Positions 3,243 through 59,225 of a stretch of DNA of 64,000 bases are shown one piece after another; position 1 is the stretch's first letter, and every line of letters begins with the position of its first letter. This DNA comes from Sedimentisphaerales bacterium (lineage in GTDB: Bacteria; Planctomycetota; Phycisphaerae; Sedimentisphaerales; UBA12454). Both the position numbers and the translations under genes were made by a program. The notes below the pieces were generated by a model, which saw only the letters and a list, made by a program, of their open reading frames with translations, did not search any database and had not been told where the DNA came from. The stretch spans positions 26,860 to 90,859 of the forward strand of contig JBEKEA010000002.1 of the NCBI GenBank assembly GCA_050014075.1. Direction: 5' to 3'.

Positions 3243-5093
3243 ATGGTGTTGTTGAAAAAACAATCAGATAAATATTGGTTTATTTTCATCTGTGCGGTAA
3301 TGACGATTGTTACGCTGGCGGTTTATTGGCAGATGCGCCAATATGATTTTATCAGCCTTGACGATTTCGGTTATGTAAGGGACAATCCGAATGTTCGCTA
3401 CGGATTCAGCTGGGCAAACGTCGGATGGGCGTTTAGCAGCGGTTACGCCAGTAACTGGCATCCATTGACATGGCTTAGTCATATGCTGGACTGCGAGCTT
3501 TACGGAACTAACGCCGGTATGCATCATCTGACTAATTTATTCCTGCATATCGCAAATGTTCTTTTGCTTTTTGCCGTTCTTAGGGCAATGACTGGTGCGC
3601 TTTGGCCAAGTGCCTTCGTTGCCGCGCTCTTCGCATTGCATCCGCTGCACGTCGAGTCGGTAGCGTGGATATCGGAACGCAAGGATGTTCTGAGCACTTT
3701 TTTCGCTCTGCTGACAATGGCGGCATATCTGCGATATGTCAAAAAACCGAGTATCGCACGATACCTGCCGGCGTTGCTGCTTTTTGCGTTAGGACTTATG
3801 GCAAAGCCTATGCTGGTAACTTTGCCGTTTGTGCTGCTTCTGCTGGATTATTGGCCTCTGGAGCGGTTTAAGCCGGCAAATATGAAAACGGCGAAGCGCC
3901 TTGTTTTTGAAAAAGGACCTTTTTTTATATTGTCGGCAGCATCGAGTATTATTACTATTTTTGTTCAAAAAATAATCACGGTCAACCAGCTTCCTTTAAA
4001 TCTTCGCATCGCCAATACATTCATATCTTATGTCAAGTATATCGAAAAGATGATTTGGCCGGTCAACCTGGCGATATTTTATCCGCATTCCGATATGAAA
4101 TTATCAATGCCGCAGGCTTTTGCTTGTGCTTTACTGCTGCTGGGAATATCTGCCGGAGTGATTTGCCTTGCCCGGAAACGAAAATACCTTTTGTTCGGCT
4201 GGCTGTGGTATCTTGGAACTCTGGTTCCGGTAATTGGTCTGGTCCAGGTGGGAGGTCTGGCTATGGCCGACCGTTATACATATATGCCGCTTACAGGGCT
4301 GTTTATCATTATTGCATGGGGAGCTAACGACCTGCTGACAGGATGGAAGTATAAAAAAATTATACATGGCATATCAGCGACTATGATTCTTTTGGCATTG
4401 GCTGTCTGGACATTTTTTCAGGCAGGATACTGGCGCAACAGCTTAACCCTTTTTGAACATGCTATCGCGGTTACTGAGGATAATTATTTGGCGCATAAAT
4501 GTTTGGCCGATGCCCTGCACGGCCAGGATAAAAATGAGGAGGCAATCGAACATTACCGCAAGGCGATTGAAATCGGCGAAAACTATGCATCTGCGTATGT
4601 CGGCCTGGGTTCAGTCCTGATTGATACTGGGAAAACCGACCAGGCAGAGGAGTATCTTGCAAAAGCGATACAACTCGACCCGGAGTCGGGCAAGGCGTAT
4701 GGCGAGCTGGGACGGGCTATGGCGAAAAAAGGTAAAATGAGTGAGGCGGCTGCTCTTTTCGAAAAGGCCGCTAGGCTTGAGCCTTACTGGATTGACCCGA
4801 TTAATGCTCTTGCGTGGAATCTTGCGACTTATAATGATGCAAAAATCCGCAATCCCGTCAGGGCGGTCCAGTTGGCAAAACGTGCATGCGAACTTACAAA
4901 TTATGAAAACCCCGCTATAATGGATACGATGGCGGCGGCTTATGCAGCGGCGGGCGACTTCAGCAAAGCGATAGAAACTTGTGAAAAAGCTCTGGCATTA
5001 TGCAAATCCGCTCAGCAGAGCGAGCTTAAAAGGGAAATTGAAAATCGGCTGATTTTGTATAAAGCCGGCAAACCTTATATCGAGGCACAGTGA
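3243..5093 (+). CDS. TMTC/DUF1736-type GT-C glycosyltransferase (putative protein O-mannosyltransferase) with C-terminal TPR repeats, paralog 1
   Basis: 616 aa and multi-TM. First-loop DD motif (FISLDDFGYV), the motif HPLHVESVAWISERKDVLSTFF shared by all four paralogs, and a TPR-rich C-terminus. Confidence 0.8.
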   Translation: MVLLKKQSDKYWFIFICAVMTIVTLAVYWQMRQYDFISLDDFGYVRDNPNVRYGFSWANVGWAFSSGYASNWHPLTWLSHMLDCELYGTNAGMHHLTNLFLHIANVLLLFAVLRAMTGALWPSAFVAALFALHPLHVESVAWISERKDVLSTFFALLTMAAYLRYVKKPSIARYLPALLLFALGLMAKPMLVTLPFVLLLLDYWPLERFKPANMKTAKRLVFEKGPFFILSAASSIITIFVQKIITVNQLPLNLRIANTFISYVKYIEKMIWPVNLAIFYPHSDMKLSMPQAFACALLLLGISAGVICLARKRKYLLFGWLWYLGTLVPVIGLVQVGGLAMADRYTYMPLTGLFIIIAWGANDLLTGWKYKKIIHGISATMILLALAVWTFFQAGYWRNSLTLFEHAIAVTEDNYLAHKCLADALHGQDKNEEAIEHYRKAIEIGENYASAYVGLGSVLIDTGKTDQAEEYLAKAIQLDPESGKAYGELGRAMAKKGKMSEAAALFEKAARLEPYWIDPINALAWNLATYNDAKIRNPVRAVQLAKRACELTNYENPAIMDTMAAAYAAAGDFSKAIETCEKALALCKSAQQSELKREIENRLILYKAGKPYIEAQ

Positions 5094-14198: not shown

Positions 14199-15443
14199 AT
14201 GCTCCAACTATTCAAAGACAAGAATTTACTGAAGCTCTGTTTTGCAGCGTTCTTTATGAGCGCCTGCCTGCAATTGGTCAGTATTGTGCTCCCCTTTGCG
14301 GTAAAGGCTATAAACGGCAGCGATACCGATGTCGGCCTGTGTTTTATGGCGCAGATGGGCACTTATGTTATTTTTTGTATACTGGCTGTTTTAATAATCG
14401 ACAAACTCAACCCCAAAAAAGTTCTGCTGATAGCCGCCGGTGCAGAAATTATTGTTTCATTGGGCTTTCTTGCGACAGTCAAATACGGAAACAGTAACGG
14501 CATATTCTTTAGTCCTGTAACACGGCTGATTATCCTGATGTCAATGAACGGAATCATCACAGCATTTTTCTGGCCGACGATGATGGGCTGGATTTCAACC
14601 GGTCACGAAGGACTTGAGCTTACAAAAAGATTCGGCTTTTATAACGTAACCTGGGGAATGGCAAATACGGCTCTGCCGATTGTCGGCGGGTATCTTATGG
14701 AAGTCAATTATCCATGGCCGCTGGCGCTGGCGGTTGTTTTCGCAGTCCTTTGTTTAATATCACTTTTTCCGACAAGGCATACGAGTCAAATTCCGGCAAT
14801 GCACCAAAATATCACCGATGACGCCGGCCGGCAGATACCGCTGGAAAACAGGTCTTTTGTCTGGATATCGCGAGTCGCTCTTTTTACTACATTAGTATGC
14901 GTTGGCATTTTCAGGAGCCAGCTTGGAATTTTGTATAAATTTCAGCTTGGATTTGCCGAATCTACTTACGGCTGGTCGGTTTCGCTTATGTGCCTTTTTA
15001 ATATTGCGGTTTTTTATATGATGGGCAAAAGCCACTATTGGCATTATAAGAAGGCACTCTACGCGGCAGCACAAGTTTCAATTATTGGCTGTATGGCGAT
15101 GATGATTATATGCAAAAGCCTCCCGCTGCAATTGCTCGCATCCGGTATGGCAGGGGTTTGGTATGGATACGTTTACAGTTCACATCAGTATTACGGCGTT
15201 TCAGGCAGCAAAAAACGTTCCAACCTCATGGCCGTGCACGAAACAATTATCGGCGCAGGTTTCGCAACGGGTTCTTTATTCGGCGGGATATTAAGCGATG
15301 CCTTCGGCAGATATTCGCCATACTGGTTTGGCTGTGCAGTTATTGTCGCAGGAGGATTAGTCCAGATAGTCTTGTGGTTTATTGCCCGCAGACCTGCTCA
15401 GATTTCCTCGAAGGAAGAAACATCTGTTTTTACATCGCCGTAA
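14199..15443 (+). CDS. MFS transporter
   Basis: 414 aa with about 12 hydrophobic segments and the MFS-like two-halves organisation. Confidence 0.7.
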   Translation: MLQLFKDKNLLKLCFAAFFMSACLQLVSIVLPFAVKAINGSDTDVGLCFMAQMGTYVIFCILAVLIIDKLNPKKVLLIAAGAEIIVSLGFLATVKYGNSNGIFFSPVTRLIILMSMNGIITAFFWPTMMGWISTGHEGLELTKRFGFYNVTWGMANTALPIVGGYLMEVNYPWPLALAVVFAVLCLISLFPTRHTSQIPAMHQNITDDAGRQIPLENRSFVWISRVALFTTLVCVGIFRSQLGILYKFQLGFAESTYGWSVSLMCLFNIAVFYMMGKSHYWHYKKALYAAAQVSIIGCMAMMIICKSLPLQLLASGMAGVWYGYVYSSHQYYGVSGSKKRSNLMAVHETIIGAGFATGSLFGGILSDAFGRYSPYWFGCAVIVAGGLVQIVLWFIARRPAQISSKEETSVFTSP

Positions 15444-15455
15444 GGCGATTCCTCA

Positions 15456-15487
15456 CTATTAACTATCAACTACCAACTATCAACTAT
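15456..15487. repeat. heptad tandem element, TAYCAAC unit
   Basis: Reads tattaac tatcaac taccaac tatcaac tat, starting 13 nt after the MFS stop. Confidence 0.85.
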
Positions 15488-15519
15488 AAGAAGTTTCACC
15501 CGCGAGGGTGAAACTTCTT
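15488..15519. terminator. perfect 14-bp-stem palindrome, candidate bidirectional terminator overlapping the xerD stop
   Basis: AAGAAGTTTCACCC (15488-15501), loop GCGA, GGGTGAAACTTCTT (15506-15519). It lies between the convergent MFS and xerD genes and encodes the last xerD codons (KKFHPRG). Confidence 0.6.
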
Positions 15520-16431
15520 ATGAATACTCCGCAGTCTTTCCATGTCAACGTGAGTATATATCTGCGTTGTCGCAATATCGACGTGCCCGAGCATCTCCTG
15601 CACGCTGCGCAAATCCGCTCCGCCGCTTAAAAGATGAGTCGCAAAGCAATGCCGAAGAGTATGCGTCGTCATCTGCTTTGGTAATCCCGCCCGGCAGGCG
15701 TATTTTTTTACAATTCGCCAGAGTTCAATTCTGCTAAGTGCTCTGCCCGTTCGCGAAAGGAACAGGGCGTCGCCGCTGCAAGGCTTGGCCAGTTTCCCTC
15801 GAAATTGCTCGATATATTGTTCAATAGCCCCAATCGCGGCATGGTTGAGAGGAATTACCCGTTCCTTTTTACCTTTGCCCAGGCATCGGACATATCCGAT
15901 TTTAAGATTCGCATCGCCAATTTTCAGCCCCGCGACTTCGCTCGCCCTTGCGCCGGTAGCGTAAAGTAATTCGAGAAGGGCACGGTCTCTGAAATAATAA
16001 GGCTCTTTCTCATCCGGACAGTCCATCAGTTTTGTAACCTGGTCTTTGCTGCAAACAATTGGAAGTTTCTGCCAAAGCTTTGGGCTTTCAAGAAATACTG
16101 TTAAATCGTCCTTGATGTGTCCCATCATTTTGCAGTAGCGCAGAAACATTTTCAGCGCGACTACCGAGCGGTTAATCGAGGCTTCTGCTTTATTTTGGCG
16201 GGCAAGGACCTTTGCGTAATCATAAAACTCAGCTGTAGTAATCTTATCAGGCTTCTTAATCCCTTTCGAAAGGCAAAATATGACAAATTCCCGCAGGTCT
16301 CTGCCATAGCCGAGGATGGTGTTTTCGCTAAGGCCGGCTTCGACGGTCAGGTAATTTAGGAATGCCAGCACCGTCTTTCCAAACGGCTCAGCATCTAAAA
16401 CTGTATTAAGATTCTGCACTTGTAACGACAT
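15496..16431 (-). CDS. xerD: tyrosine site-specific recombinase, XerD/XerC-like
   Basis: 311 aa with an N-terminal SAM-like core-binding domain (FLNYLTVEAGLSENTILGYGRDLREF) and a catalytic region (HTLRHCFATHLLSGGADLRSVQEMLGHVDIATTQIYTHV). Confidence 0.85.
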   Translation of the reverse strand: MSLQVQNLNTVLDAEPFGKTVLAFLNYLTVEAGLSENTILGYGRDLREFVIFCLSKGIKKPDKITTAEFYDYAKVLARQNKAEASINRSVVALKMFLRYCKMMGHIKDDLTVFLESPKLWQKLPIVCSKDQVTKLMDCPDEKEPYYFRDRALLELLYATGARASEVAGLKIGDANLKIGYVRCLGKGKKERVIPLNHAAIGAIEQYIEQFRGKLAKPCSGDALFLSRTGRALSRIELWRIVKKYACRAGLPKQMTTHTLRHCFATHLLSGGADLRSVQEMLGHVDIATTQIYTHVDMERLRSIHKKFHPRG

Positions 16432-16563
16432 ATTATGATAAAGTCCGATAAATTACGGTTTTTATGCTAATTTTAGGCAATTGTTTCATTGCTCTATGTT
16501 TTGTTTCGACAAAAGCACTCACTTTCCCTTAATATAAAGTTCAAAATGATAGAGAAGCAATAA

Positions 16564-16854
16564 ATGACACTATTTTATGTTTATTTCCTTGCGAGTTGTA
16601 AAAATGGCTATCTTTATATTGGCGTAACAAAAGATTTGATTGGCAGGGTTAGAAAACACAAAAATAATTCTCTCGATGGTTATGCAAAAAAACTCGGAAT
16701 TCACAATCTTGTTTACTATGAAACTTTTGATGATATTAACAAAGCCATTGCTCGCGAAAAGCAGTTAAAAAAATGGAAAAGGCAGTGGAAGATTAAATTA
16801 ATCGAAAAGGATAATTCCGACTGGAAAGATTTATATCCCAATTTAACCCTTTAG
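16564..16854 (+). CDS. stand-alone GIY-YIG nuclease-domain protein
   Basis: 96 aa with YVYFLASCKNGYLYIGVTKDLIGRVRKHK...YYE...AIAREKQLKKWKRQWK, the GIY-YIG (UPF0213-like) pattern. Confidence 0.9.
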   Translation: MTLFYVYFLASCKNGYLYIGVTKDLIGRVRKHKNNSLDGYAKKLGIHNLVYYETFDDINKAIAREKQLKKWKRQWKIKLIEKDNSDWKDLYPNLTL

Positions 16855-17100
16855 GATGATTCCTGCGTTCGCCAGGAATTTCTTCCTTGAAGCACCTTCT
16901 CTGGAGGTCATTCCCGAGAAGGTACTTCTTTGAATCCGCTACAGGGAATTCTTCCTTGAAGTATCTTCAATGCAGTGTCATTCCTGAGAACCTGCATCTT
17001 TGGCTCCACTACAAGGAACATCCGGCATTTCACCGTATTATCACTTGCTTATATAACTTCCTCAGATATAAATCATTCCTTGAGGAAGCAACATCGAATT
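16855..17100. repeat. degenerate tandem hairpin-repeat array immediately 3' of the GIY-YIG gene
   Basis: Hairpin ATTCCTG (16859-16865) pairs with CAGGAAT (16873-16879). GTCATTCC(C/T)GAGAA repeats at about 16907 and 16977, 70-nt spacing. AATT(T)CTTCCTTGAAG occurs twice. Hairpin CTTCCTCA (17057-17064) pairs with TGAGGAAG (17081-17088). Confidence 0.7.
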
Positions 17101-17176
17101 TTTAACTATGAAATACTTACAGGTTAGTTCTATGTAGTTTTGAAACCAGTTGTAGCTAAGTAGTAGAAAGAAAAAA

Positions 17177-17626
17177 TTGAGCGAGACTAAGTTTTATCAA
17201 AACATGACACAACTCGGAACGGGAATAGGAGTATGCTTTGACAAGAAACTAATTACTTCGGCGTTGGTCCTATTGTATTCAGCGATTGATATAACCAGTT
17301 GGCTGGCCTCAGACAAACCAAACGCAACAGTACGTGAGTGCTTTGTAACATGGGTTGAAAAATATTTATTGGCATCTAAACCATTAAAATGTACAGCACT
17401 TGAGTTGTATTCAGCCAGATTTGGTCTTGTACATACCTTGACACCCGACTCACAACTGGTTGAACAGGGGAAAGCACGTCTAATTGCTTACGCTTGGGGT
17501 ACTGCGAAGTCCAATGATCTGAGTAAATTAATCGATATGACAAAATTGTCGGATAAGGCCGTAGCAGTTCAAGTTGAAGAACTATGGCTTGGAGGCTTGG
17601 TTTGCTTGCGTTCAGCAAGGAGTTAG
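17177..17626 (+). CDS. hypothetical protein (possible frameshifted gene)
   Basis: 149-aa ORF with a TTG start, in an AT-rich region. After about 17600 the +1 frame stays open and reads AWRLGLLAFSKELEGNTSKAVRVYERADKFFSNLAIKPFEHLLDSNNLI. Confidence 0.4.
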   Translation: MSETKFYQNMTQLGTGIGVCFDKKLITSALVLLYSAIDITSWLASDKPNATVRECFVTWVEKYLLASKPLKCTALELYSARFGLVHTLTPDSQLVEQGKARLIAYAWGTAKSNDLSKLIDMTKLSDKAVAVQVEELWLGGLVCLRSARS

Positions 17627-17859: not shown

Positions 17860-17936
17860 CTGATAACCGATAACTGAGTTTCTGATAACTATTAACTATC
17901 AACCAGCGACTTTTATCCGCCTCAGGTGGAAGCGAC
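17860..17936. repeat. heptad element (CTGATAA / CTATCAA units) plus GAGGCGGATAAA-type hairpin module
   Basis: Reads ctgataa ccgataa ctgagtt tctgataa ctattaa ctatcaa ccagcgac, then TTTTATCCGCCTCAGGTGGA, which is the reverse complement of the module at 57841-57858 and 54826-54840. Confidence 0.8.
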
Positions 17937-19204: not shown

Positions 19205-19279
19205 CGGGGTGTAGCTCAGTTTGGCTAGAGCGCCTGGTTTGGGACCAGGAGGCCGTAGGTTCGAATCCTATCACCCCGA
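19205..19279 (+). tRNA. tRNA-Pro (anticodon UGG)
   Basis: A manual cloverleaf fits. Acceptor CGGGGTG/CACCCCG, D-arm GCTC/GAGC, anticodon stem CCTGG/CCAGG with loop TTTGGGA (anticodon TGG, G37), T-arm GTAGG-TTCGAAT-CCTAT, discriminator A. CCA is not encoded. Confidence 0.9.
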
Positions 19280-30874: not shown

Positions 30875-30875
30875 A

Positions 30876-30908
30876 CTATTAACTATCAACCAGCAACTAT
30901 CAACTAAC
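30876..30908. repeat. heptad tandem element filling the oppA1-oppB intercistronic spacer
   Basis: Reads ctattaac tatcaac cagcaac tatcaac taac. It occupies essentially all 35 nt between the stop at 30910 and the start at 30874. No SD is visible. Confidence 0.85.
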
Positions 30909-30909
30909 T

Positions 30910-32649
30910 TTATTTATATCGCTGCTTTTCCTTCGGAACATACCACTCGAACGGGTCGATGCCGAGCTTATGAACTATTACGTTTTCAAATCGCCTGTCC
31001 ACAAAATAATATCGCGGCCTTGTAAACAAAAAAGTATAAGGCTGCTCATCATACAGTAATTTTTGAAACTTATAATATATAGCATCTCTTTTTTCTTCAT
31101 TAAGTTCCCGCCGCCCTTCTTCTATGAGTTTATCCGCCTGTGGGTTATTAAAAGACACATAATCGCTGCCGCTCTGAATTTGCGACGAATGGAATAACTG
31201 ATATGGGTCCTCTTCGACAACTCCGCCCCATTGTGACTCGGCAGCGTCGAAGTCGCGGTTATGAAGATTTCCTAAATATATTGACCATTCAACCGGATTG
31301 GGGATGACATCTATCCCAACTTTCGCGGCGTCATCTTTGAGCAATTTTGCTATTTGTTCCGATGATGCGCCTCCCGCAGGATACGAATATTTGAATCGCA
31401 GCGGGATTCCATCTTTGTCGCGAATACCGTCGCCGTCGTGGTCTATCCAGCCTGCCTCGTCCAGCAGTTTAGCTGCTAACTGAGGGTCATACGGCCAGGG
31501 CTTGATATTCGAGTCATTTGCTTTGCCGTAAATATAAAACGGCCCTGTAATTACCATTCCTTTACCGCGAGTAAGGATTTCCACCATTGCCTTGCGGTCT
31601 GTTAAGCAGGTCATTGTCTGCCGGACTTTTTTGTCTTTGAAAAATGGTCTCTGTTCGTTCCACCCGATATACCAGTAGGCAAATGTCGGGTCCCAGAATA
31701 TTATTGCTCTAAATTCCTTTGCAAAATCCGGTTCTTTTGGCAGGGTCGTAACCTGTTCAGAGCCGGGTTCAAACATATCAATGTCATGAGAACGCAACGC
31801 CTGAACGGCGGCAGGGGCGTTTGCGATAAACTTATAAACAATTTTTTTCAGATTCGGTTTTTTGTCCCAGTAATTTTCATTCCGCTTCAATACTACCTGC
31901 TGGCCGACATCCCATTTTTCAAATACATACGGCCCGCTGCCTACAGGATTTGAAACCCGCTTATTGAATTCCTCAGGATTTTTAAACTGATATATATGTT
32001 TTGGAAAAATATCGAGCTCACCAACGGATTCTATCGTCTTCCAATACCGCTCTTTTAGAATGAATTTAATCGTCCGGTCATCAAGTTTGACCGCATTGGT
32101 TATGTTTTGAAGGTAATTGCGAAGGCTGGCACAGTCGGTTTTAGGATTCATAATCGTCTGGAAAGAAAAGACCACATCGTCTGCCGTTACAGGTACGCCG
32201 TCCGAAAAATGAATGTTGTCTTTTAATGTGATGGTTATCTCCAGCCCATTATCTGAAATATCCATCTTTGCCGCAAGCTTTGGCTTGAGTTTTATGCTGT
32301 TTGCATCGAGGTCCTGTATAAAAAGGCTTTCGATGATTGTTGACTCGACAACATTTCTTGTGCTGATATCGGCATCAACCACCACCGGGTTCAAGGTTCG
32401 CGGCTCACCGGTAATGTCCCAGATAAGCCAGTCGCCCTCGTCGCCGGGATATTTATTTGCAGACTGGGCGGTTAAATTTGACTCCTGCTTATTCATTGTT
32501 GTCTGCCGCTGACCCGATACCGCGTCCAGGATGACATTAAGTCTTTCATACAGCCTGTCCGATTGAATCATCGACAAAACCTGCAGCAGTATTACCGCAC
32601 CGAGCAGTAAAACCAGAAAAAACGTAAATAATCCTGACCGGCCGTTCAT
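30910..32649 (-). CDS. family-5 ABC substrate-binding protein (OppA/DppA-like), membrane-anchored, paralog 1
   Basis: The ATG at 32649 (MNGRSGLFTFFLVLLL) is preferred: TGGAG lies upstream and it parallels paralog 2. SBP_bac_5-like body. Confidence 0.85.
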   Translation of the reverse strand: MNGRSGLFTFFLVLLLGAVILLQVLSMIQSDRLYERLNVILDAVSGQRQTTMNKQESNLTAQSANKYPGDEGDWLIWDITGEPRTLNPVVVDADISTRNVVESTIIESLFIQDLDANSIKLKPKLAAKMDISDNGLEITITLKDNIHFSDGVPVTADDVVFSFQTIMNPKTDCASLRNYLQNITNAVKLDDRTIKFILKERYWKTIESVGELDIFPKHIYQFKNPEEFNKRVSNPVGSGPYVFEKWDVGQQVVLKRNENYWDKKPNLKKIVYKFIANAPAAVQALRSHDIDMFEPGSEQVTTLPKEPDFAKEFRAIIFWDPTFAYWYIGWNEQRPFFKDKKVRQTMTCLTDRKAMVEILTRGKGMVITGPFYIYGKANDSNIKPWPYDPQLAAKLLDEAGWIDHDGDGIRDKDGIPLRFKYSYPAGGASSEQIAKLLKDDAAKVGIDVIPNPVEWSIYLGNLHNRDFDAAESQWGGVVEEDPYQLFHSSQIQSGSDYVSFNNPQADKLIEEGRRELNEEKRDAIYYKFQKLLYDEQPYTFLFTRPRYYFVDRRFENVIVHKLGIDPFEWYVPKEKQRYK

Positions 32650-32663
32650 ATAAAGCTCCAAAT

Positions 32664-32702
32664 CTATTGACTATTAACTATCAACTACCAACTATCAACT
32701 AC
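32664..32702. repeat. heptad tandem element between the two SBP paralogs
   Basis: Reads tattgac tattaac tatcaac taccaac tatcaac tac. It overlaps the stop codon of the upstream SBP gene. Confidence 0.85.
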
Positions 32703-34441
32703 TTATACTTCTGTTTATCTTTCGGCACAAACCATTCTTCTTCTTTAAGACCGAGTTTATGAACAATTACATTTTCAAATCGTGGTGAAATTATACGGTA
32801 TGTCGGCCTTGAAAACAAAAAAGTATATGGCTGTTCATAGTGTACAATACTATGAAATTTTCGGTTCAATTCTATACGTTTTTCCTCATCCATTGTGCAT
32901 CTTATCTGCTCAAGAAGTTTGTCGGCCTCAGCGTTTCTAAAGCACACATAATTCGACCCGTGATTATCTATTTGAGATGAGTGGAAAATCTGATAGTACT
33001 CTTCCATAATATCTCCGCCCCAGCCCATCACTATCGCGTCAAATTTATGGTCCGGCAGCTTTGTTACTAGGACCGACCATTCGACAGGGTCGGGTATTAT
33101 TTCAATTCCAAGTTTAGCGGCTGAATCTTTAACAATATTTACTAAATTCTGATATAAAGCATAATCCGCTGAATAGGAAAACTTGAATCGAAAAGGAATT
33201 CCGTTTTTATCGCGGATTCCATCGCCGTCGGTATCTTTCCAGCCGGCCTCGTCGAGAAGTTCGGCGGCTTTTTTAGGGTCATACGGCCAGGGCCGGATAT
33301 TGGGGTCGTTTTCTTTACTGAATATGTAATATGGTCCGGTTATTTCATGCCCGCTGCCTTTAAGAAGATATTCGAGAAGAGCCTTTCTGTTTATCATCTC
33401 TGTCATAGCAAGTCTTACCCGCCTGTCGCCGAAGAAGGGCGTATTTTCGTTCCACCCGATATAGAAAAATGGCGAACCCGGATTCCAGTATACAAGACAT
33501 TTAAAATCATTTTTAAATTTTTCATCTTTAATTGCGTCCATAAACTGGTCCGGCGAAGGAATCATCATGTCCACATCGCCGCTGCGCAGCGCCTGCAGTC
33601 TGGCCTTGTCGTTGATTATAAATTTATACATTACTTTTTTTATCTTTGGCTTGATGCCCCAGTAATTTTCGTTTCTGCGGAACGTTGCTTTATCTCCCGT
33701 GTCCCATTTTTCAAAAATATACGGTCCGCTGCCGATTGGATTTGATACCCGTTTATTAAATTCCTCCGGGTCTTTAAATTCGTAGATATGTTTCGGATAT
33801 ATGCCGATGTCCCAAAATGATAAAATTTCAAGCGCCTTGAAATATGGTATTTTCATATAAAATTTGACTGTCTTTTCGTCGACCTTTTCGACGCCTTTTA
33901 CATCAATATACGATTGTGCAAAATCAGCGGCATCTATTTTCGGATTTATGACGGTCTGGTAAGTGAAAATAACATCGTCAGCCGTAATTGGCACACCGTC
34001 TGAGAAGTGAATATCGTCTCTTAATGTAAAAGTAATTTCCATTCCGTCCGGCGATACTTCATAGCTTTTGGCCAGCAGCGGTTTCAGCTTGATTTCATTG
34101 TAATCGTAGGCCAAAAGAGGCTCAAAAACATTTTCAAACATCATCCATCTGGCATATATATCTGAGTTAACCGAAATCAGGTTAAGCGTTTTCGGCTCGA
34201 TAGCCAATGCCCACACGAGCCAGTCGCCCTCATCGCCTGCGGTTGCCGCAGCCTGATTTTCGGCTTGTTTTGCTGGTATTTGATTTTGCACTGGTGCGCT
34301 GAATATGATTTTTTCGAGTGAATTTAATCTTTGGCTGAATCTGCTAAACTGGTTTTGGGTTAATAACTGCAATAATATTATGATGATTAGAAGGAAGAGG
34401 AAAAAAAATGCCTTTGCGCCAGTACCCGGCAGTCCGTTCAT
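32699..34441 (-). CDS. family-5 ABC substrate-binding protein (OppA/DppA-like), membrane-anchored, paralog 2
   Basis: 580 aa with GGAGG 8 nt upstream of the ATG and an N-terminal TM anchor. It is colinear with paralog 1 (for example IHFSDGVP(V/I)TADDV(V/I)F, FNKRVSNP(V/I)GSGPY(V/I)FEKWD). Confidence 0.85.
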   Translation of the reverse strand: MNGLPGTGAKAFFFLFLLIIIILLQLLTQNQFSRFSQRLNSLEKIIFSAPVQNQIPAKQAENQAAATAGDEGDWLVWALAIEPKTLNLISVNSDIYARWMMFENVFEPLLAYDYNEIKLKPLLAKSYEVSPDGMEITFTLRDDIHFSDGVPITADDVIFTYQTVINPKIDAADFAQSYIDVKGVEKVDEKTVKFYMKIPYFKALEILSFWDIGIYPKHIYEFKDPEEFNKRVSNPIGSGPYIFEKWDTGDKATFRRNENYWGIKPKIKKVMYKFIINDKARLQALRSGDVDMMIPSPDQFMDAIKDEKFKNDFKCLVYWNPGSPFFYIGWNENTPFFGDRRVRLAMTEMINRKALLEYLLKGSGHEITGPYYIFSKENDPNIRPWPYDPKKAAELLDEAGWKDTDGDGIRDKNGIPFRFKFSYSADYALYQNLVNIVKDSAAKLGIEIIPDPVEWSVLVTKLPDHKFDAIVMGWGGDIMEEYYQIFHSSQIDNHGSNYVCFRNAEADKLLEQIRCTMDEEKRIELNRKFHSIVHYEQPYTFLFSRPTYRIISPRFENVIVHKLGLKEEEWFVPKDKQKYK

Positions 34442-34689: not shown

Positions 34690-34985
34690 AGTTAGGTCGA
34701 AAAACCCTTCGACTGCGCTCAGGGCAGGCGACGTAAAAAATGACGTAAGTCCTTTGTTTTCGAGGGGGTTTTTTATGTAAGTGTTTGCAGGGACAAGTTT
34801 TAGTGGCGTAATCCGCTAAGGGATGCCTCACGGCAGCCATCTCGACGATATAGATTTTGATTTTTTTGCCCTGTTTTGGAATGATTTACCCCTGTTTTTT
34901 GATGATTTTGGTGTTTTTTTAAATACAGTTATCGGTTATCAGATCATCAAGTTATTGGGAAACGGTTATCGGTTATCAGCACGAA
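34690..34985. repeat. mosaic repeat block B ending in a heptad element
   Basis: Shares TTCGACTGCGCTCAGGGCAGG, GTAAGTCCTTTG, GGGACAAGTTTTAGT, GATTTTGATTTTTTTGCCCTGTTTT and TTTTGGTGTTTTTTTAAAT with blocks A and C. Region 34927-34985 holds GTTATCN heptads, followed by GCGGGGGGATTTTTTATGG, which is also at 55029-55046. Confidence 0.75.
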
Positions 34986-58902: not shown

Positions 58903-59157
58903 ATGGATAATAAAGCCGTTTTAGACGAGTTGCTTGAGTTACTTGAGAAAAATAATGTTAAAATACGTAAAGATTCGCTGGGCGGGGGAGGGTCGGGATT
59001 GTGCAAAATAAAAGGCGAATACCTGTTCTTTCTGGATATGGATTCGAGCTCTTATGAAGTTGCGATAAGCTGCGCAAAAGCTGTGAATGAAATTATAGAT
59101 ATTGAAACGATTTATTTAAAGCCGGAAGTAAGGGAGTTCCTTGAGGGAAATAAGTAA
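58903..59157 (+). CDS. hypothetical 84-aa protein
   Basis: MDNKAVLDELLELLEKNNVKIRKDSLGGGGSGLCKIKGEYLFFLD.... Lies divergent from the histidine kinase and upstream of the response regulator. No recognised family. Confidence 0.45.
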   Translation: MDNKAVLDELLELLEKNNVKIRKDSLGGGGSGLCKIKGEYLFFLDMDSSSYEVAISCAKAVNEIIDIETIYLKPEVREFLEGNK

Positions 59158-59183
59158 CTCAGTTATCAGTTATCGGTTATCAG
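59158..59183. repeat. heptad tandem element, GTTATCN family
   Basis: Reads ctcagttatc agttatc ggttatc ag, starting right after the stop codon at 59155-59157. Confidence 0.8.
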
Positions 59184-59225
59184 AAAATCAGGTTTGAAAT
59201 TGAAGATTAACGGAGTGAACAAACG

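Follow-up and report, generated by a model that had tools for sequence, protein, structure and literature searches.

The DNA considered here is a 64-kb stretch (64,000 nucleotides) of a Sedimentisphaerales bacterium (contig JBEKEA010000002.1), referred to below in its entirety as ‘the window’. It carries a small gene, ssn, which encodes a stand-alone nuclease of the GIY-YIG type, has the chromosomal genes xerD and glmS as its neighbours, and is directly followed by an array of short hairpin-forming repeats (Table 1). The locus is very probably an ‘ssn cassette’, in which the gene for an Ssn GIY-YIG endonuclease is joined by its cognate hairpin repeats (‘Ssn-related motifs’, or SRMs) in a variant form that is specific to one subclade of the family; it is a new example of an already published system, not a new system. 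An earlier note on the same DNA, made from the letters alone, had described a 96-residue open reading frame (ORF) restricted to a GIY-YIG domain, together with hairpins and a motif repeated at 70-nt spacing, and all of these features were recovered where the note had placed them.

Table 1. Features of the ssn locus and dispersed heptamer arrays, in window coordinates.
Feature	Position	Strand	Basis or remark
Promoter-like TCGACA-18-TAATAT	16506..16535	+	Promoter scan; part of the xerD-proximal intergenic DNA, not ssn-specific DNA
ssn gene, single-domain GIY-YIG nuclease, 96 aa	16564..16854	+	Pfam PF01541 and SsnA match
Hairpin A, AGGATGA-ATTCCTG-CGTTCGC-CAGGAAT-TTCT	16853..16883	-	Counterpart of the reverse SRM that follows the stop codon in most relatives
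70-nt tandem repeat, 2.1 copies	16874..17018	+	Tandem Repeats Finder, 77% matches, score 176
Linker 1, TTCTTCCTTGAAGCACCTTCTCTGG, first half of the 70-nt repeat unit	16880..16904	+	
Unit B1, long-loop SRM variant GTC-ATTCCC-N28-GGGAAT	16905..16949	+	
Linker 2, duplicate of linker 1	16950..16974	+	
Unit B2, TGTCA-TTCCT-N28-AGGAA-CATCC	16975..17024	+	
Hairpin CTTCCTCA-N16-TGAGGAAG	17057..17095	+	Hairpin itself 17057-17088; overlaps degenerate partial third unit AATCATTCCTTGAGGAAGCAACATC
ACTATCA-type arrays (ACTATTAACTATCAAC..)	15455-15495, 17888-17928, 30875-30915, 32670-32710		
GTTATCA-type (GTTATC) arrays	436-471 (~442), 541-581, 34926-34980, 59154-59194		

The array begins at the end of the gene (stop codon TAG, 16852-16854) and runs in the order hairpin A, linker, unit B1, linker, unit B2 and the degenerate 5' half of a third B unit (at about 17069-17095). 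The core of hairpin A, ATTCCTG-N7-CAGGAAT, lies at 16859-16879, while the motifs GTCATTCCCGAGAA at 16907 and GTCATTCCTGAGAA at 16977, exactly 70 nt apart, belong to the two B units and together take the form GTCATTCC(C/T)GAGAA. The earlier note’s description of about 250 bp of tandem units thus holds as regards the presence of the repeats and fails as regards their extent: the tandem part measures 145 bp, and the rest consists of hairpin A and the degenerate partial unit. A 72-residue ORF at 16887-17105 was set aside as spurious, as it lies across the repeats.

The family to which the gene belongs was described by Chenal et al. (Nat Commun 2025; PMC11893778). Ssn proteins, as defined in that study, are single-domain GIY-YIG proteins of about 94 residues that fall under entry cd10448 (‘GIY-YIG_unchar_3’) of the Conserved Domain Database (CDD) and are handled as a separate family. 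They bind and cut single-stranded DNA (ssDNA) only, in a sequence- and strand-specific manner, beside hairpin repeats (NTS/SRM, CGTCATTCCCGCG..GCGGGAATC); the repeat is oriented, and is called NTS in Neisseria (CGTCATTCCCGCGMAVGCGGGAATCYRG) and SRM more generally (PMC11893778). Binding by SsnA requires the sequence of the palindrome and a C immediately 3' of it, cleavage requires three bases (GTC) on its 5' side, and the cut is made in the single strand a few nucleotides upstream of the hairpin; mutation of Y6, Y17 or E64 of the Neisseria meningitidis (Nm) enzyme abolishes cleavage, and SsnA displays neither activity on double-stranded DNA nor binding of RNA (PMC11893778). SRMs were reported in the flanks of 71% of ssnA homologues and on both sides of the gene in 42%, more than 200 of them are present in some ssnA-bearing genomes, and in N. 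meningitidis the enzyme reduces transformation by DNA that bears NTS (PMC11893778).

The window protein fits this family closely. Found unchanged in four independent assemblies, it is 96 residues long and has the single-domain build and length (about 94 residues, at most 150) that characterize Ssn: PF01541 (GIY-YIG) spans residues 4-77 (E 1.2e-14), and the Pfam scan detected no second domain and no DNA-binding extension in the product. Its comparison with the SsnA orthologue of Neisseria gonorrhoeae by BLASTP gave 48% identity over 86 of the 96 residues (E 3e-32), inside the limits used for the family (E < 1e-10 and at least 75% query cover). The gonococcal protein, which served as a stand-in for N. 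meningitidis SsnA (CAX49033.1), is a 94-residue ORF (L174:989-1273) whose locus was found by a tblastn search of a plasmid collection (PLSDB); it is surrounded by canonical NTS copies, and its Y6, Y17 and E64 are numbered as in PMC11893778. (The PLSDB records in question, NZ_CP119140.1 and NZ_CP119142.1, are 2.17-Mb N. gonorrhoeae chromosomes filed as plasmids.) Window residues Y7, Y18 and E65 align with the catalytic Y6, Y17 and E64 of the meningococcal enzyme, and these three, together with R28 and H32, are invariant in an alignment of 15 homologues. Judged by its sequence, the 96-residue protein belongs to the Ssn family.

Other relatives of the fold are more distant. The only match in the Protein Data Bank (PDB) is the UPF0213 protein BH0048 (1ZG2), a YhbQ-type protein that is likewise a stand-alone GIY-YIG domain of about 100 residues, and the match to it is weak (E 3e-5, 27 bits) when set against that to SsnA; this difference serves as an indirect pointer to a placement of the cd10448 type. 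With GIY-YIG homing endonucleases of the I-TevI type the protein has the catalytic domain in common, but it is without their DNA-binding extension, and the locus offers no intron, intein or phage context. The NCBIfam scan returned no equivalog model for the protein, and the NCBIfam model for group I intron endonucleases scored 17 bits against a cut-off of 56. No second ssn, nor any other GIY-YIG copy, was found elsewhere in the window by tblastn.

The association between gene and repeats was then followed across relatives, comprising 80 loci each from genomes and metagenomes (53-74% identity, from more than ten phyla) and the loci of the closest homologues. The published SRM pattern, HGTCWYN(0-2)YYVSBRHN(0-5)WNVSBRGN(0-2)RNCYNB within 500 bp of the gene, was matched in 103 of 170 loci, and the nearest downstream SRM is usually reverse-oriented, at a median of 13.5 nt past the end of the gene. 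Of 167 non-redundant loci, 133 have the 8-mer GTCATTCC/GGAATGAC in the 100 nt that follow the gene, which bears out the earlier note’s statement that hairpins of the form GGATTCC..GGAAT trail small GIY-YIG ORFs, and 121 have it in the 200 nt before the gene. The 8-mer reaches 8-10 copies per kb in the 100 nt next to the gene, against about 0.1 per kb beyond 700 nt, and a layout of forward SRM, gene and reverse SRM is present in 84 of the 167 loci. Several database homologues even end in read-through tails (for example ..LCHSRE, a translation of TGTCATTCCCGAGAA). In other samples, orthologous and paralogous loci carry the same hairpin elements in the corresponding position, and the motifs are thus more than a product of chance. 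One Rhizomicrobium contig (L082) bears two ssn copies (2001-2261 and 3932-4192) that lie 1.9 kb apart and are equally identical to the query; the pair looks like a tandem duplication of a cassette.

Within this broad association, the window and its nearest relatives form a subclade, probably resident in Sedimentisphaerales-like bacteria, with a repeat module of its own. Hairpin A comes straight after the stop codon and has the form (T)TAGGATGA-ATTCCTGC-loop-GCAGGAAT; it sits where other relatives have CTGGATTCCCGCTTTCGCGGGAATGACA, with GAC changed to TAC, TTC or similar. A linker of about 25 nt separates it from unit B, whose consensus on the gene strand is TGTCA-TTCCY-GAGAAG..CWTTG..GCTACA-RGGAA-(T)CATCCTAA, or, in pattern form, GTCATTCCYGAG-N-RGGAA, and the module is closed by TTAGGATGA/TCATCCTAA. 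The two elements are inverted copies of each other, as both ends of B align with A in reverse complement (CAGT[GTC]ATTCCTG...CAGGAAT(T)CATCCTAA), A being the form with a short loop and no GTC. Units of the B type were found only in relatives with a protein at least 67% identical and at one further locus; all lie on the gene strand, at or past the end of the gene. In an alignment of 18 of them, neither the box nor the 5-bp basal stem varies apart from a single base pair, C-G in 13 units and T-A in the other 5, with the stem paired in all 18. The 28-nt interior is conserved in sequence. An apical helix within it was tried and dropped (it is paired in only 66% of cells), and a possible stem of 5-7 bp that encloses the GTC box, in a register that varies, is available in five of eight units of the linker type.

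The window repeats therefore share with the published SRMs the 5' box GTCATTCC, the TTCCY/RGGAA palindrome, the 3' C and a position beside the gene, and differ from them in a loop of about 28 nt where 3-5 nt is the rule, a long loop being the reason that they escape the published search pattern. The locus as a whole departs from published Ssn loci in having no upstream repeat, in the loss of the GAC box from the reverse repeat, in its tandem units, in the lack of a genome-wide expansion (as far as 64 kb can show) and in its Planctomycetota-like host (Sedimentisphaerales).

Unit B2 is the best-preserved candidate recognition site and most likely the functional one. It is SRM-like in a broad sense, lying next to the gene with a GTC box, a conserved palindrome and a 3' C, retains all positions known to matter in Neisseria, and has in addition the covarying basal stem and the module-ending CATCC seen in relatives. 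Unit B1 is followed by T instead of C, owing to the duplication junction. At the closest orthologous locus (L165), where the protein is 90% identical and xerD is again the neighbour, a single B unit is present, from which it follows that the 70-nt repeat of the window (linker plus B) is a recent, lineage-specific local duplication. B1 and B2 arose in it, probably as the boxes CAGGAAT and CAGGGAAT (GGAAT) recombined unequally.

Larger arrays are known from two related metagenome loci, in which five to six tandem B units follow ssn (L168:2281-2620 and L085:836-1030). Remnants of the 3' end of ssn (..WRDLYPDLIS*) lie between B units there in direct orientation (L085:890-920, L168:2335-2365), which suggests that arrays grew through duplication or decay of whole cassettes. 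In the window, 17065-17079 is an inverted 15-nt copy of the 3' end of ssn (16823-16837). In L168 there is, besides ssn, another GIY-YIG gene on the opposite strand, about 1 kb downstream and divergent (40% identity).

The case for an ssn cassette is thus made up of family membership, a motif that is conserved, partly covarying and confined to the gene flank, local duplication, and presence or absence among close relatives. If the window protein works as its characterised homologues do, it would bind the B-type hairpins on the single-stranded plus strand and would cut a few nucleotides 5' of the GTC box of B. Hairpin A, read on the minus strand, keeps its stem and the C after the palindrome, with the GAC (GTC) box replaced by TTC, and would represent a reverse-oriented SRM that has lost this box; it might still be bound, since the 3' C is kept, and is unlikely to be cut because the box is gone. 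In the cell, our best guess is that the enzyme would act on transient ssDNA (incoming, replicating or under repair) that bears the motif. The earlier note’s proposal that the protein recognises the adjacent hairpins accordingly gains support from homology, from the published property of Ssn enzymes (PMC11893778) and from the fit of the protein to the family.

Several observations pull in the other direction. The strict SRM pattern has no match in the window or in 11 loci of the subclade (protein at least 67% identical); since the same search gave nine matches in 2.3 kb of N. gonorrhoeae (L174), this null is not a script error. No SRM box lies within 200 nt upstream of ssn in the window or its subclade, so that the arrangement with repeats on both sides (42% of homologues) is absent. 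Hairpin A lacks the GTC box needed for cleavage in Neisseria, and B1 is without the 3' C on which binding depends in that genus. RNAalifold on the 18 units gave only the 5-bp basal stem and no consistent pairing in the interior of B, so that B may not form the compact hairpin that SsnA recognises. Family membership was judged against the gonococcal stand-in, and the case for this subclade comes from sequence.

The neighbours of the cassette vary within the subclade: xerD in the window and in L165, a pair of methyltransferase (MTase) and DpnI genes in L166 and L171, murC in L173, an MTHFR gene in L169, and others elsewhere. The XerD of the window is the housekeeping protein (equivalog TIGR02225, 333.7 bits against a cut-off of 329.6), and its best-named homologues come from Phycisphaerae/Sedimentisphaerales. 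Three relatives with XerD proteins 96, 84 and 81% identical have no ssn, including in the orthologous xerD-proximal spacer of the 96% relative; all three keep xerD, an MFS transporter gene and polA, and some also have DUF2905 and YdjC. The spacer upstream of xerD (window 16432-16563; also in L165, L175, L177 and L178/L179) is a variable spot with the same promoter-like sequence ahead of it: depending on the relative, it is empty or is filled by an ssn cassette, by two genes (of which one has a prepilin N-methylation motif) or by three. By blastn, the similarity of L175, L177 and L178 to the window ends at 16534, just past the shared TCGACA-18-TAATAT, which places the left junction at 16534/16535. 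Locus L165 is the filled version of the L175 spacer, with the ssn cassette and about 450 nt between the promoter and a gene of 200 codons, while L177 and L178 have two or three unrelated genes there. Comparison with these relatives disclosed no target-site duplication, clean right junction or excision footprint at the xerD spacer, the right junction being blurred because the spacer is variable in all of them. The filled and empty sites show gain or loss of the cassette, not transposition.

On the far side of xerD, the three ssn-less relatives have a DUF503 gene that is absent from the window; in L175 it lies between xerD and the MFS gene (reverse complement 2673-2998), and the corresponding approximately 330 nt are represented in the window by 53 nt (15441-15493), in which lie a heptamer array and the first part of a perfect 16-bp hairpin (15486-15521). 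Right after the ssn array, a 149-residue ORF (17177-17626, plus strand) has no Pfam or NCBIfam match and is not conserved beside ssn in L165 or in other subclade loci.

It is against this background that the strongest alternative has to be weighed, namely that the cassette is a present or recent autonomous mobile element on whose ssDNA hairpin ends Ssn acts as a transposase, after the manner of IS200/IS605 or RAYT/REP, with the A(-)/B(+) pair and the B arrays as abutted-end junctions or footprints of activity. The idea is shared by the authors who described Ssn, who noted the IS-like layout NTS-ssnA-NTS and drew the same parallel to IS200/IS605 and REP/BIME as the earlier note did (PMC11893778). 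Inverted SRMs bracket the gene within about 40 nt in half of the relatives (the 84 of 167 counted above), homologues of 60-66% identity are spread over more than ten phyla, the cassette occupies at least five unrelated neighbourhoods within the subclade, and the abutting of two cassette ends would be expected to place A(-) before B(+). The filled (L165) and empty (L175) versions of one spacer, with a left junction at a defined nucleotide, would suit it as well; yet the same spacer takes up other cargo (L177, L178), so that gain via ordinary recombination is possible, and neither a target-site duplication nor a clean footprint of excision marks the site. The cassette is, moreover, present in a single copy without a solo SRM anywhere else in the 64 kb, strand-transfer chemistry is not known for GIY-YIG nucleases, and transposition has not been reported for any Ssn. 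We accordingly regard autonomous mobility as unlikely. A more specific form of the idea, in which Ssn cassettes are miniature transposons that move via ssDNA with the GIY-YIG nuclease as end-cutter, appears to us quite improbable; under it, abutted ends would meet in the A(-)/B(+) pair, which TTAGGATGA...TCATCCTAA closes, and the tandem B units (the duplication in the window, and the L085 and L168 arrays with their ssn 3' remnants) would be scars of repeated cutting and repair at those ends.

As with RAYT (TnpA-REP), a single-copy gene is accompanied by short inverted palindromes of its own, and the A(-)/B(+) pair resembles a BIME; RAYT is, however, a transposase-like protein of the HUH Y1 type and not a GIY-YIG protein, and REPs are dispersed in hundreds of copies, whereas the window repeats are confined to the flank of the gene. 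The TnpA of IS200/IS605 likewise reads imperfect ssDNA hairpins in a strand-specific manner and cuts a short distance away, as Ssn does, but it proceeds by transesterification through an HUH tyrosine where GIY-YIG enzymes hydrolyse, and there is no evidence of excision or integration for Ssn. As the window protein does not have the HUH/Y1 fold, it may work in a similar way without being a member of either group. Literature searches on YhbQ, and on RAYT/REP in combination with GIY-YIG, returned nothing relevant, and no follow-up study of SsnA was found.

A second alternative takes the hairpins as transcription signals of ssn (a terminator, or a stabiliser in the 3' untranslated region) or as cis-regulatory RNA, rather than as DNA recognition sites. 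Hairpin A does score as terminator-like, with an 8-bp stem followed by TCTTCCTT, and may serve as a weak terminator too; the region 16850-17100 also folds, as ssDNA, better than 200 of 200 shuffles (z = -4.9). Against it stands that among relatives the GTCATTCC box and the ATTCCYG stem are conserved in sequence and not in structure alone, recurring from phylum to phylum, before and behind the gene and in either orientation. Nor does the interior of B have a conserved fold, and a scan of the window at Rfam gathering thresholds identified no RNA family at the array, its only hit being a tRNA-Pro at 19205-19279. The characterised SsnA does not bind RNA (PMC11893778). An explanation of the hairpins as transcription signals in place of recognition sites is thus very improbable.

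The remaining question concerns the other repeats of the window. The earlier note took the window to be saturated with small hairpin modules, and saw in the GIY-YIG gene a candidate driver of the dispersed repeats. A window-wide search found just 19 inverted repeats of at least 12 nt in the 64 kb, none of which resembles the ssn hairpins. Neither a further copy of the GTCATTCC box nor any ATTCCY..RGGAAT hairpin occurs in the window outside 16853-17095, so that the cognate palindromes are not dispersed within it and the cassette has not seeded copies of its motif elsewhere in the 64 kb. The dispersed repeats are of another kind: intergenic arrays of four to five heptamers of the form NYTATCA (Table 1), the repeat family that is truly dispersed in the window, and paralogous gene segments, neither with any sequence relation to the ssn hairpins. 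Two of the heptamer arrays bracket the segment that contains xerD, ssn and the 149-residue ORF. The notion that the dispersed repeats of the region arise or spread through the GIY-YIG protein, which has in its favour only the RAYT/REP analogy and the presence of more than 200 SRMs in some ssnA genomes (PMC11893778), is extremely unlikely in view of the complete absence of strict SRMs and of further boxes or hairpins, and what the earlier note itself had listed as refuting it, an array unique to its locus and unrelated to other repeats, is what the 64 kb contain.

A reading of the bare sequence thus arrived at a hypothesis that had been published independently of it, and was wrong in the link that it drew to the other repeats of the window. 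For the family, the recognition of the locus as an ssn cassette has several consequences. The Ssn enzymes are, to our knowledge, the only nucleases described as cutting nothing but ssDNA and doing so at defined sites, and any pair of enzyme and repeat is a potential tool; the locus adds such a pair from an uncultured planctomycete-like lineage. The approximately 29% of homologues that were reported without SRMs may include similar cases in which a long loop hides the repeat, and the rule of recognition may reduce to a GTC box, a 5-bp TTCCY/RGGAA stem and a 3' C. Finally, the filled and empty sites in the xerD spacer offer a concrete place at which movement of the cassette can be tested.

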